The position numbers were made by a program, and so were the translations under genes. Below are positions 2,384 through 45,601 of a stretch of DNA of 45,738 nucleotides, one piece after another. How positions within the stretch are numbered: position 1 is the first letter of the stretch; each line of letters opens with the position of its first letter. The stretch comes from Seison nebaliae (taxonomy: Eukaryota), in contig JALJEE010000177.1 of NCBI GenBank assembly GCA_023231475.1, forward strand, positions 1 through 45,738. Reading direction: 5' to 3'. The notes beneath the pieces were generated by a model. That model ran no database searches and was not told where the DNA came from. It worked only from the letters and a program-made list of their open reading frames with translations.

Positions 2384-4637
2384 ATGAAATATAAAAATAT
2401 AATCATCTGTGTTTTCTTCTTCTTTTCTCAGTGCCTCAGTACCGATGATAATGAGGAGAAAATCTTATTTTATAGTTGCGTAATAAACAACTTATGTGAT
2501 CAGTTGGAATTCTCAGAGAAATTATTCCAACATCATTCAAATGTAATTGCAACAGAATATGAATACTGTTCAATGTTTCCAAATCATCATATTGATGATG
2601 AAAGTGATGATCGAAAAAAATTAACTCAGAAAGATATCATTAATAATCTCAACAAATTCATGTCCGACTACGACAATGATGAACAAAATGTGGATGAAAG
2701 TTTAAACCATTCAGAAGATGATTTAGATAATATGAAGGATTCGCATGAAAGTCGTATGGATTCCATGATCATAGAGGAGGATGAAGAGGTTGAAAAGCTT
2801 AAGAAAAATTATGAAAAGAATTTAAAAAATGAGGAAATATATCAACAAAATCACGACATTGATAATGAGAAAATTATGATGAAAAAATGTTTTGGAGTAA
2901 CACAGGTGGATTATATTCGTTATGGGGACGCACCAATAGACGATTTAAGATTTCAACGAATTCAAACATTTGAAGAGGATGAAAATGAACCGGATATTAT
3001 TCGTCAATCTTCCCATAGTGAAACTGAGAATTCAATAGAAGATAGATTATTCCTCCATATTACTTATCCAAAAACTGGAATTAATCATCCAGTGCTAATT
3101 CTGTTCATCGATGGGACATATATGAGTTAAAATTGATTTAATACTATTAATTGGTAATTGTTAATAATTTTAGATAATTTAAAAGAAAACTTGAAAAGAA
3201 TATCATTGATTTATCGAATTACGTTCGTTGTTGTAGAGTCACGTTCTCGACTCTTTGGTTATTTATCATTTATCCATAATCATTTTCCCCCAAACAACCA
3301 TTTATTCGACCAATTTGAAGCAATCAAATGGATCAAAAGAAATATCCAACAATTCAATGGAGATCCATATTCACTGTCAATTATGGCTCGAGATTTCTAC
3401 GCAACAACATCTTTATATCATTTATTATCATCAAAATATCGGTCGTTTGTTGATCAATTTATTATAATCGATCCATTACTTCGAAATCATCGACGAACGA
3501 TACAAACTCAATCGAAAAGCATAAGTAGTGTACTCAAACTGATCGAGGATGGTTGACTCTTTATTTTTTTCGTTTGACTTTTTATTTTATCTTATCAGAT
3601 AAATTGAAAAATTCAAAAGAAATAGAGGAGAAATTATTAGAATTATCTCCTGAAACAATTATTCAACGTTCATCTCTTCTTCCTCCTGATTCATTCGCTC
3701 CACAAATTGATAATGACTTTATTTCGAATCCACTTCCACCTAATTATCCAATTTATAAAATGACTGATAATCTCAAAAGAAAATATTCAAAATATTTCCC
3801 ACAAAAAACTCCCTCGATCGCAATGATATCCACAGCACAAGCAGCTAATACAATAGTTCATCAACAATTTCCTCAACTTAAAAGTTAACTGTTCTCATTA
3901 TTTCTTCAAATACAATTTAGTTGTAGATATCTCTAAATCAGATATTATGGAATTCATTGAAAAAGAAATTATTGATAAAAAATACATTTCTCATCAATCG
4001 GACAAAGATAAGAAGGAAATTCTACGAAAAATTAAAAGTTTTTATTTTTTTCGAAAAACATCGGAAGAAATATTCGGTCGTCTTCTGAGTGACATAATAT
4101 TCGTTGCTCCTGCATTATCATTTATCGAGAAATATTCAGGTTCTTCATAATGATCTTATATTCTTTTAAACAAACAACTATATTTTTTCTTTATCAAAAT
4201 TTAGTCAATAGTCCTACATTTTTTATGTATGTGGATCAGAAGAATTCCGATCTATTCTCTACTGTCAACGATGCTCATAAGAATGATGGAATTGATTCAC
4301 GGAAATTGTGGAGATTCATTTTCTCGTCTACTGGAGAAAGAACGGGTCATGGAGAGAAATTATTTAAAAAGTTTTGGATGTGGAATAAGTATTTGTGTTT
4401 AACAAGGTTCCCAAATTGTTTTTACTCATGTTTTTACTTCAACAAAACGTACGAAATTTTTTTAGAAAACCGAATAATGATTATTCACCATTTTGGCCTT
4501 CATACCAACCAACAATCAATATGAGAGAATATTTGAGAATTAATGCAAATGGATATGTAAGTCACTCAAAAAATTTAAGAACGGAAATCTTGAGTTTTCT
4601 ATTAAAACATTTGAAAAATAATGCTCGATGGTTATAA
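2384..4637 (+). CDS. Secreted type-B carboxylesterase/cholinesterase-fold protein, predicted non-catalytic (6 exons)
   Basis: Exons 2384-3125, 3174-3551, 3599-3883, 3921(or 3927)-4139, 4205-4406, 4466-4637 splice in frame. Signal peptide MKYKNIIICVFFFFSQCLS. Family motifs IRYGDAPIDDLRF, SIEDRLFLHITYP, SRLFGYL, LFDQFEAIKWIKRNIQQFNGDP, FWPSY. Confidence 0.8.
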
Positions 4638-4707
4638 TTAGAAAACGTGGAAAACTATTAAAATTTGTAAATAAAAATTAATTTTTATTCAAAAGTCGAT
4701 TCATCGA

Positions 4708-42623: not shown

Positions 42624-45601
42624 ATGTATTATTTTCTGGTAATTCTCTTATTATTCGTTAATTCAAGTTAGGTTTAATAATTTTTGAAAAACTATAATTA
42701 TTAATTTTAGGTTATGAAACCCTGTCGCAATGTGTTGACAATCCTTTTTGTGAGAAGATTTCGATCATTCAATGTCAATTTCATAAAATTGTCAAAGAAT
42801 GTCCTTTAAAATGTAAGAATTTAGAATGTATTTCAGGTAGTTATTAAAAGAAATTAATTATTGATTAAACAATATATTGATGGTCCGTTTATTTGCTGAT
42901 TAAGAATTCAGTTGTAATGACCATTCAGAATGCGCTAATATTCCTTTGAATTGTTCAAATTATAAATTTCAAATAATATGTCCATCCAAGTGTCATAATA
43001 TTAACTGTAACAAAGAGAGTTTTATATTTCCATTCTTTTTACCGATTCATTCATTATTTTGCAGACAAATTTTTTAAACGAAATTTATGCGTGGATGACA
43101 ATTCAATATGTCCCACACTTCCTTATGAACATTGTCGATTGGATCATGTGAAAACTATTTGTCCAGTAAAATGTCGTTCTATGGCATGTGTAGAAGGTTT
43201 TTAATTTAAATATTTTTTTCAATTTTCTTAATCTAGTTTTCTTTTAGTTCAATGTACAGATATACCAGATTGCAACAATTCAAGTTTCTTTGAAAATTGT
43301 ACTAATTCATTTATAATGAATATGTGTCCTATGAAATGTAATGCTATTTACTGCAATAAAAGTTGGTTATTTTCTTTTATATTGATCATGATTTTTATTG
43401 ACGAATAGAGGATATTTGTAATGAAGACCAGAGTGTTTGTAAAACGATCTCAACTAGTTACTGTTCTCAATTACACATCAAACAAATTTGCCCTAATCTA
43501 TGCAATTCTGAAGAATGTATTTCACGTTAGGAAACGACATTGTTGTTTAGTAGCTATAGATTTATATTCCTCTAATTTGCGTGATTAGGGAGTTCTGAAG
43601 AAGGTGAATGTAAAGATAAAGATACGATATGTTCCAAGGCAACTACAAAACAATATTGTCATTTAGATCAAATTCAGGAAGTTTGTCCAAAAACGTGCAA
43701 TAATTGCCTTAAGATAAGTTGTTTCTGTTTTTCACCATTAATTTAATTGTAAGTTTAGAGAAATGTGTCGATGAGATGTTTTGTAATACTATTGATCCCG
43801 GATATTGTCGATTAAACAAAATAGTGGAAAGTTGCCCTTTAACCTGTCAGCAATGTAACAAAGACAGTTAGTGTTTTATTAATTCGAAAGTATTTATATA
43901 AATTTATTGTTTAGCTCAATCCTGTGTAGATCATAAAATTTGTTCCAAAATTGGCACTCAATATTGCGCGCAAAAAAAAATACGAGAAATGTGCAAAAAA
44001 AAGTGCAAAATTGCTCCATGCGGTTAATTTATTTTAATTACCTAAAAACTCCGTTTCATCAAAAACATGATATTTTAGACTGTTTTGACGAATCAGTTTG
44101 CGACAATGTGCCGTTCAGCGCCTGTCGCTTAAGGCACGTGAAAGAACTTTGTCCAAAACTCTGCGAAGAATGCACTAGTTCAATAAATTTTTTAAAACTA
44201 CTGATCATTATCAAATTTTTTTATAATTTATTCCACTGTATGTAAAAGTTAGCACATGTAGGGATCAAAAATTTTGTACCAGATCACAATTCAATCAACA
44301 TCATTGTAGCGAAAGAATATCAAACCTTTGTCCAAAGACATGCAATTTACTAAAATGTTTATCTGAAAGGCAAAGTTGTATTTGACTCTTAATATACTTG
44401 ATATTTACTAAATATAATTGCAATGTTTAGAATTTTGTCGTGAACAAATTCCACAAGAATACTGCCGACTAAAACATATAGAAGAGTTATGTCCGGAAAC
44501 GTGTCATTCTACAAGCGTTTCACCAACTGTGACGTTGGAAGTTGCAACTACTAGTTAGCATTTTATTATTGTGATATTAGTTTTATTAGGTAATTAATAT
44601 TTAATATCACCAATCTTCATCGGGCGATAAGTTATTTGGGCCCTGATATTTTATTATATCATAAGATATTTTCTCTGGTCGACGGTGGTCTGCAACGATT
44701 CAGGAATGGCAGGACAGATATCGAACTTATTAATAGTAAAATGGACAACGTCCAAGGAAGTAGGTATCCTTAGAGAACAATAATCCTCTAATAAGTTGAT
44801 AAATTAGTAGAACAACTCACATTGGTTTAACATAGAATAAGAAAATCGGTAGAAGAAATAAATTTCGATATATTTCGACATTTACGAGAGAAGAACTGAT
44901 TATCGCTTCAATCCACAATCAATCAGTATATACTATATATAGGGAGAAGAAAAAAAAGCGAAGAATAAAGCACTGAAAACAGACAAATCAGTTTTGAAAA
45001 CATTTCGATTATAAACTTCATATAGAATTTCCTCAACCAATTTTCTAAAAATCCAAATAGGTTATGTAACTCTTCTTCTTGTTAAATAATTTAAACATGA
45101 AATAATGTTTAACAATATTATTGTTATCCATTGATTTTATAGTTATGTTATATTTGATTAATGGTAGCTTTGGAAGGTAATTTATACCTTATGTTTATAA
45201 GGTAATTTTTTTCCAAATTGAGATAGGATTGAAAAATTAATGACCTAAATTCTTTTTCAATAGTTGAATAAAACCACGCGATTATGTATTATTATAATAA
45301 TATTATACATACTATAATAATTAATTAATATATGAACGGTTTTTTGGTACCATTTACAGACAAAATGACAACAACGACTCGGAGAACCACAACAACAACG
45401 AGCACCACCACAACAACGAGCACCACAACAACAACGAGCACCACCACAACGACGACCACCACCACAACAACGAGCAACATCTTTTCATTATTGCCAAATT
45501 CACTAATGCAATCATTCAAATCATTCCAAAACTCCTCCTTCACCCTTTCTTCTTTCTCGCTTCCAGTCCCATTCTCACAACCGATTGAAATAATTTTATA
45601 A
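42624..45601 (+). CDS. Secreted multi-ShK-like protein: signal peptide, 10 full + 1 partial Cys6 domains, Thr-rich tail (13 exons)
   Basis: Exons 42624-42666, 42711-42836, 42905-43018, 43065-43196, 43248-43361, 43409-43525, 43589-43717, 43759-43866, 43915-44022, 44079-44177, 44249-44374, 44431-44553, 45360-45601. All internal exons are multiples of 3 with phase-1 introns. Each encodes C-x5/6-C-x6/8-C-x7/8-C-x3-C-x2/4-C. The last exon is less certain. Confidence 0.85.
45385..45476 (+). repeat. ~18-bp degenerate tandem repeat encoding (T5S)n mucin-like tract
   Basis: ACAACAACGAGCACCACC-like units. Confidence 0.85.
45470..45573 (-). mobile_element. Fragment of LINE apurinic-like endonuclease (RTE-like)
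   Basis: GTGSEKEERVKEEFWNDLNDCISEFGNNEKMLLV matches the 'EEKEEFW..L...I.......iv(lGD)' segment of RTE/CFDP2-like endonucleases; truncated just before GD. Confidence 0.65.

Follow-up and report, generated by a model that had tools for sequence, protein, structure and literature searches.

We analysed a 45,738-nucleotide stretch of contig JALJEE010000177.1 from Seison nebaliae, a seisonid rotifer (Rotifera), here called the window, in which the great majority of the introns start with GTT. The window has a G+C content of about 31% and contains genes on both strands, most of them interrupted by short introns (Table 1). An exon of the acid sphingomyelinase gene used as the query retrieved the deposited S. 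nebaliae protein SNEBB_005773 with 98% identity, and two further genes in the window match the deposited proteins SNEBB_005774 and SNEBB_005775. An initial annotation of this DNA, made from the sequence alone, had proposed that about 90% of the introns start with GTT, with loss of the +3 purine, of G at +5 and of G at -1.

Table 1. Genes, introns and donor sites in the window. A slash marks the exon-intron boundary.
Feature	Position	Strand	Introns and donors	Basis and remarks
Carboxylesterase-family gene	2432..4634	+	5 introns of 43-65 nt, all GTT: 3126, 3552, 3884, 4140, 4407	Deposited protein P0124 exon by exon; Pfam COesterase
CDT1-like gene, intron	5570..5619	-	50 nt, A/GTTTTC...AAAG	Transcript gap; weak Pfam CDT1 match (E 1e-5)
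Protein kinase gene, two introns	7881..8244	-	7940, 8244, both A/GTTAAA	Pfam Pkinase; transcripts
Protein kinase gene, in-exon intron	13006..13064	-	59 nt, G/GTTCCG...AAAG	Spliced in 1/2 transcripts
Fatty acyl-CoA reductase-like gene, three introns	17947..18705	-	17997, 18172, 18705, all A/GTT	Transcripts; NAD_binding_4
Alpha/beta-hydrolase gene, intron	21395..21443	-	49 nt, G/GTTATA	Transcript; Abhydrolase_3; outside the list of the initial annotation
Transcript gap	24654..24697	-	44 nt, minus-strand reading T/GTTAGT...TAG	Transcript without predicted function
DHX8/PRP22 splicing helicase gene	25081..28983	+	Intronless	Single 3.9-kb open frame; core close to human DHX8
SAC3/GANP gene, four introns	30307..32220	+	30307, 30497, 30906, 32174, all GTT	Reading frame only; Pfam SAC3_GANP; presumably LENG8/THP3-like
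Acid sphingomyelinase gene	32679..34691	-	7 introns: 5 GTT, 2 GTA (34084, 33938)	Deposited protein, profile alignment, transcripts, related loci
WD40-repeat gene	34925..38961	-	27 modelled donors, of which 26 are spliced in transcripts (24 GTT, 1 GTA at 36051, 1 GTC at 37255)	Transcripts
Cys-rich repeat gene(s)	40150..44759	+	19 donors: 16 GTT, 2 GTA, 1 GTC	Deposited proteins P0122, P0123

The donors were collected in a modelled set of 68 introns, 57 of which were located by exon-by-exon mapping of five deposited proteins and 11 by reading frame, and in a transcript set derived from the transcript-to-genome alignments in supplement 2 of the genome paper of the species (PMC8351084), of which 19,906 rows were covered. 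Sequencing runs aligned to the window behaved as DNA or gave no alignment, and none showed a splice joint. Among the alignments listed, to which all transcript results below refer, 34 rows labelled k141_3701 fitted the window coordinates; 29 of these were used, and 5 rows with no gap, a repeated junction or a ragged end were omitted. Transcript-defined donors together with those from gene models and reading frame gave a combined set of 71 distinct donors. The covered introns were all located on the minus strand, and the listed alignments included no spliced row for a plus-strand gene, none across the carboxylesterase introns and no row at all over the Cys-rich region; the plus-strand genes rest on models or reading frame. 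According to the genome paper, reads were mapped to the genome before transcripts were built from them (PMC8351084), a procedure that should favour GT-AG ends but no particular base at +3. For the large Cys-rich gene the initial annotation counted 12 donors without giving their positions, and these were read off the deposited model together with the frame. A subset with 55/58 GTT donors, which had been picked by judgement with the donors in view, was not relied upon.

The transcripts defined at least 43 distinct donors, 39 of which started with GTT, 3 with GTA, 1 with GTC and none with GTG. The ends were GT-AG in 45 of the 47 transcript gaps of at least 20 nt and non-canonical in the other 2. 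When the gene models were added, GTT was found in 64/71 donors, and the +3 base in the 68 modelled introns was T in 60, A in 6, C in 2 and G in none. The GTT bias on the contig is real and confirmed by transcripts, and the proposed figure of about 90% was borne out. The underlying tallies were also reproduced, with 34 GTT and 2 GTA among the 36 unambiguous donors, A at -1 in 22, G at -1 in 7 and G at +5 in 8. Of the 37 donors first noted, 13 were cut exactly in transcripts (5619, 7940, 8244, 17997, 18172, 18705 and the 7 sphingomyelinase donors), while the 5 carboxylesterase donors, 40294, 40823 and most donors of the Cys-rich gene agreed with deposited proteins. One donor, 40998, differs from the deposited model, which uses 41031 instead, also a GTT donor that starts a 48-nt intron.

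An artefact of gene prediction or assembly could in principle yield a uniform intron start, because training can bias deposited models, and the deposited 44-nt GTA intron of the WD40 gene (36079-36122) was indeed retained in 4/4 transcripts. This intron was the only miss in the covered genes, where 39/40 modelled donors were confirmed by transcript gaps, and the 4 transcript donors absent from the modelled set were all GTT. It was also noted that a 38-nt intron of the WD40 gene (36014-36051) replaced the modelled 51-nt intron in 3/4 transcripts, and that this gene has an additional alternative GTT donor at 36580. Furthermore, a spliced aligner that required only GT or GC at the start and AG at the end, and was thus blind to +3, recovered the same 7 sphingomyelinase donors from a profile of 31 non-Seison sphingomyelinases, and no listed difference between aligned DNA contigs fell on any donor. 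We consider an annotation artefact already refuted for the covered genes and give next to no credence to an artefact as the general cause.

Of the 65 introns of at most 90 nt, 44 lacked any second frame-compatible GT within 18 nt, and 40 of these 44 had GTT. Eight canonical-looking sites located within 40 nt of used donors were skipped, 3 of them in frame; examples are an in-frame G/GTAAGAG 18 nt upstream of the kinase donor 7940, which was unused in 2/2 transcripts typed, and an in-frame T/GTGAGAG upstream of 35422. Nearby GTA or GTG sites as the true donors in place of GTT, which would have undone the initial proposal, were rejected by the transcripts in the genes that these cover.

The introns are T-rich, and the bias was compared with their own composition. 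The interiors contained 48.7% T and 7.7% G, and the base that followed internal intronic GT sites was T in 37, A in 17, C in 6 and G in 5 cases (n = 65), from which GTT would be expected at 49-57% of the donors. The assumption in the initial annotation that AT-richness is neutral between GTA and GTT was thus mistaken, since composition favours GTT by 37 to 17, yet too little to account for the bias: the 39/43 GTT donors in transcripts exceeded both the interior T frequency of 0.487 (p = 6e-9) and the rate of 37/65 at internal GT sites (p = 1e-6; Fisher p = 2e-4). Each of the other bases was under the intron background, with A, C and G at +3 in 5, 2 and 0 of 71 donors (p = 7e-7, 0.006 and 0.003), which indicates that U is preferred and not merely tolerated. 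These counts bear on the idea that the donor has no positive reader at all, and that selection past GT has been relaxed, the introns being defined by length and +3 filled by T-biased mutation. The T-rich interiors, the GTT majority at internal GT sites, the narrow intron lengths, the low information past +3 and the less T-rich introns of a comparison rotifer locus (0.41) are all as this would predict. We nevertheless consider it improbable, because the excess of T at +3 over both backgrounds stands against positions +6 to +8 at background composition, and because A at -1, A at +4 and G at +5 are enriched and T at -1 is depleted.

The donor consensus was (A)A/GTT(A)(G) in the usual register. 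At -1, A was found in 47/68 introns (24.4 expected from intron phase and codon positions), T in 3/68 (19.9 expected) and G in 14/68 (12.8 expected), and A at -2 in 39/68 (24.7 expected). The predicted loss of G at -1 was correct in that G is no longer favoured, but G has been replaced by a preferred A and not just lost. The codons preceding phase-0 introns agreed with this preference, as 6/6 four-fold degenerate codons ended in A (background 0.375, p = 0.003), while the ratio of 13 to 0 in favour of A at the end of Lys, Glu and Gln codons did not reach significance with 78% as the background (p = 0.08). G at -1 was associated with non-GTT donors in the full set (p = 0.007; 0.03) but not in the transcript donors alone (p = 0.12). 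At +4, A was enriched in the modelled set (32/68) and in the transcript donors (22/43 against 0.314, p = 0.005), and in the combined set A was found in 34/71 and T in 20/71. The signal at +5 is weakened, and not lost as had been claimed initially: G was present in 18/68 modelled donors against 7.7%, and in 11/43 transcript donors against 0.077 (p = 3e-4).

This residual signal bears on whether canonical U1 small nuclear RNA (snRNA) could bind in a shifted or bulged register, with GTT representing GT plus one extra base. Donors of this kind reportedly occur in mammals, as described by Roca and Krainer in 2009, and G at +6 was slightly more frequent than expected among the Seison GTT donors (10/64, p = 0.02). 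The displaced patterns were nevertheless rare, with GTTAAG in 0/64, GTTNAG in 3/64 and GTTNNGT in 4/64 (2.4 expected), as against 18/64 GTT donors with G at +5 in register, and A at +4 together with G at +5 was found in 10/64 GTT donors where 1.5 were expected. The in-register pattern and the lack of GTTAAG argue for a substitution at +3 and not an inserted base; the shifted register was rejected as the main donor class on these counts and is very improbable as the explanation.

The introns have GT...AG ends and are removed from transcripts, as is characteristic of the U2 type, but they lack the U2-type donor consensus AG/GTRAG except for the residual A at +4 and G at +5: none of the 71 donors matched GTRAG, and only 6/68 exons ended in AG. 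A U12 type was rejected since GTATCCT or ATATCCT was found in 0/71 donors. The acceptors of the 68 introns were TAG in 40, CAG in 17, AAG in 10 and GAG in 1, and the transcript introns ranged from 38 to 65 nt in length. A scan of these AT-rich introns for four simple branch-point motifs gave no positional peak. Several assembled transcripts were noted to keep single introns.

The age of the introns was examined in the sphingomyelinase gene. A metagenome scan, from which 80 of 216 related stretches were kept (42/80 without an intron call), identified a locus, L041, represented by 11.5 kb, that in a quick tree grouped with Brachionus with a support of 98 in the Shimodaira-Hasegawa-like approximate likelihood ratio test (SH-aLRT), both then grouping with Seison (93). 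L041 contains two tandem sphingomyelinase genes at 3900-8110, with 3 and 8 introns. These 11 introns are 42-62 nt long and start with GTA in 7, GTG in 1 and GTT in 3 cases, with A at -1 in 2; one donor was moved by 9 nt and is GTA in either placement. The difference between 3/11 GTT donors in L041 and 39/43 in Seison was significant (p = 6e-5), a contrast that is slightly weakened by the lower T content of the L041 introns. In 37 donors pooled from the other loci, after score and flank filters and removal of 3 duplicate loci, GTA was found in 26, GTT in 5, GTC in 4 and GTG in 2, some of these probably being false calls in transcript-derived loci. The comparisons with the intronic background and with related animals, both suggested initially, each showed an excess of GTT on this Seison contig.

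All 7 intron positions of the Seison sphingomyelinase gene recurred in the same phase, four of them in L041 and three in other animal-like loci. At the five positions where Seison has GTT the other loci have mainly GTA, with GTT in L029/L075 and in L048 at one position each. The shared positions and the prevalence of GTA in other animals show that these introns are old and that their donors were rewritten in place to GTT, at least in the sphingomyelinase gene. A recent burst of transposon-derived introns sharing a GTT end would also give a uniform start, but the hallmarks of introners, namely shared sequence, junction repeats and lineage-specific positions (the latter tested in one gene), were not seen: the longest word common to two introns was 12 nt, 45/65 introns had no junction repeat, and the 7 tested positions were old. 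The burst was rejected on these grounds and, like an artefact, is hardly credible.

The remainder of the window contains several features beside the introns listed above. In the kinase gene about 1,660 codons are contained in one exon (8245-13224, minus strand), which encodes mainly Gln/Asn-rich low-complexity sequence ahead of the kinase domain. A small frame with a hydrophobic start on the plus strand, at 24440-24669, is overlapped by the transcript at 23838-24847, whose 44-nt GTT intron is on the minus strand. No Pfam family was given for the Cys-rich repeat genes, labelled ShK in the initial annotation, and several of the deposited introns in this region are doubtful. Both deposited isoforms, which are possibly fusions of separate genes, have an intron of 1420 nt that links 41171 to 42590, and both skip a Cys-repeat exon at 42904-43018 (plus strand) that is in frame with its neighbours; the donor at 43019 was placed by reading frame as its sole basis. 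A short-chain dehydrogenase gene at 22074-23054 consists, like the DHX8 gene, of one open frame. A broken BED-finger transposase remnant, which we take to be hAT-like, was found at 330-1070 on the plus strand, where contig depth is high and other copies differ at 461-542, and a long hairpin is located at 14-114. Short multi-copy elements with raised depth were found at 16590-16920, 39730-39950, 41600-41680 and 45400-45738, the first of which yields an opposite-strand joint, as expected of an inverted-repeat element. An Rfam scan of the window identified no snRNA, only 4 weak microRNA-model matches on a hairpin at 1-167, far under the gathering scores. The DHX8 helicase encoded in the window was rejected as a cause of the donor bias because it does not read 5' splice sites.

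A change in the component of the spliceosome that recognises donors is likely in this intron-rich animal. We favour the reading that these are ordinary short GT-AG introns with an altered start signal, and the predicted cause, which we hold with even confidence, is a base change at the 5' end of U1 snRNA. This change would place an A opposite intron position +3, giving the pairing motif ACUAAC instead of ACUUAC. Exclusive pairing with U at +3 would be expected of an A, and a single such A in U1 would account for both the preference for U and the rejection of A, C and G. U1 pairing also covers position -1, and the order of A over G over pyrimidines at this position would fit a U opposite -1, either in U1 or in loop 1 of U5. 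The narrow range of intron lengths may mean that the two sites are paired across the intron, such that a weak donor would suffice, and T-rich mutation in introns would supply GTT sites during a change of reader. Pairing scores against the predicted U1 motif are circular and were not used. In Entamoeba, the precedent for U at +3 identified in the literature searched, both +3 and +4 are U, the U1 motif is ACAAAC and the U6 ACAGA box is normal (bioRxiv 10.1101/2022.06.08.495308).

It is also possible, though rather unlikely in our view, that U1 is canonical and that the preference arises from later or protein-based reading, through modified U1C, LUC7 or Prp8 proteins, through a changed U6 G44 or U5 loop 1, or from a run of U in U5 that reads AAA/ in a slipped register. 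The human +3 base faces U6 G44 weakly and donor choice is set at the transfer to U5/U6 (PMC11732430), the U1C of Entamoeba is strongly diverged (bioRxiv 10.1101/2022.06.08.495308), and the exon ends in Seison are A-rich at both -1 and -2 (47 and 41 of 71). In contrast, an unchanged U6 G44 should take C at +3 at least as readily as U, and the depletion of C (2/71) speaks against plain pairing with this base. Loss of METTL16 and SNRNP27K is tied to U at +4, and the A that Seison still prefers there speaks against that route as well. Later or protein-based reading would, moreover, need separate explanations for A at -1 and U at +3.

Several points count against a changed U1 and the extent of the bias that it should explain. 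Standard U1 is retained in most lineages with atypical donors, among them 227 Saccharomycotina candidates (PMC10581693) as well as Thecamonas, Micromonas, Giardia and Trichomonas, although the changes in these are at +4; the many atypical-donor lineages with standard U1 likewise favour later or protein-based reading. The signal past +3 in Seison is weak (G at +5 in 19/71, T at +6 not enriched), unlike the strict motif of Entamoeba, and G at +6 exceeds the 4.9 expected among the GTT donors. Decoy sites that cause a frameshift could be used and the products then removed by nonsense-mediated decay. In the worst case, with all in-frame non-GTT rivals taken as true, GTT in the modelled set would fall to 45/65, although such rival donors were rejected by the transcripts in the genes covered. 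Finally, the conclusions are drawn on one 46-kb contig with small comparison sets.

The initial interpretation as a whole finds partial support. A donor code specific to this lineage is backed by transcripts, by the homology alignment that was blind to +3 and by the comparison with other animals at matching positions. More tentatively than for the U1 change itself, we suggest that old introns in their tens of thousands were rewritten to A/GUU across the genome and that U1 changed with them, to A opposite +3 and perhaps U opposite -1. Such a rewrite would have proceeded without mass intron loss and would be the first example in metazoans of co-evolution between donor and snRNA. No report of a GTT bias in Seison, rotifers or any animal was found in the literature searched, which did not include the catalogue by Nguyen et al. 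2018 (Gene 660:92), where 1000 species are covered and animals with T at +3 could be listed; in the genome paper splice sites come up a single time, among the methods (PMC8351084).

The +3 purine and G at -1 rank among the most stable elements of the animal splice code. The published switches of donor consensus are from protists and fungi, in most cases after heavy intron loss, and one published model holds that it is a scarcity of introns that permits splice sites and spliceosome to evolve together. This model would be tested by an animal that carries 26 introns in a single gene and has old donors switched to A/GTT, and the Seison case would reveal which part of the spliceosome sets the +3 base. 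Splice-site models whose training data come from other animals will go wrong in this lineage. The genome and RNA-seq data from two divergent S. nebaliae strains are already published.

The Seison donors share their GTT start with the GUUAAGU donors that Roca and Krainer reportedly described in mammals in 2009, which are said to be rare and to carry AAG one base later, but the displaced AAG was not seen in Seison. From the two animal donor classes, AG//GUNNN and NN//GURAG (PMC11732430), Seison retains the GT-AG ends and the in-register residual A at +4 and G at +5, whereas with 0/71 GURAG and 6/68 AG// most of its donors belong to neither class. The switch from A to U at +4 in Saccharomycotina, with loss of METTL16 and SNRNP27K, is likewise a lineage-wide change of one donor base (PMC10581693), but it occurred in intron-poor genomes with U1 and U6 unchanged, and Seison keeps A at +4. 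Mastigamoeba balamuthi, with GUGCGC donors, a U1 candidate ACGUAC and 2.5 introns per gene, offers a changed consensus in a more intron-rich genome (bioRxiv 10.1101/2022.06.08.495308), and differs in being a non-animal with C at +4 rather than U at +3. The likeness to Entamoeba drawn in the initial annotation was apt, as U at +3 is dominant in U2-type GT-AG introns with GUUUGU(U) donors (bioRxiv 10.1101/2022.06.08.495308). Entamoeba is intron-poor and strict (97-98.5% GUUUGN), with U at +4, whereas Seison, compared by its donors alone, is an intron-rich animal with A kept at +4, weak G at +5, strong A at -1 and GTTTGT in just 1/68 introns. The Seison donors are a U2-type variant convergent with Entamoeba at +3.

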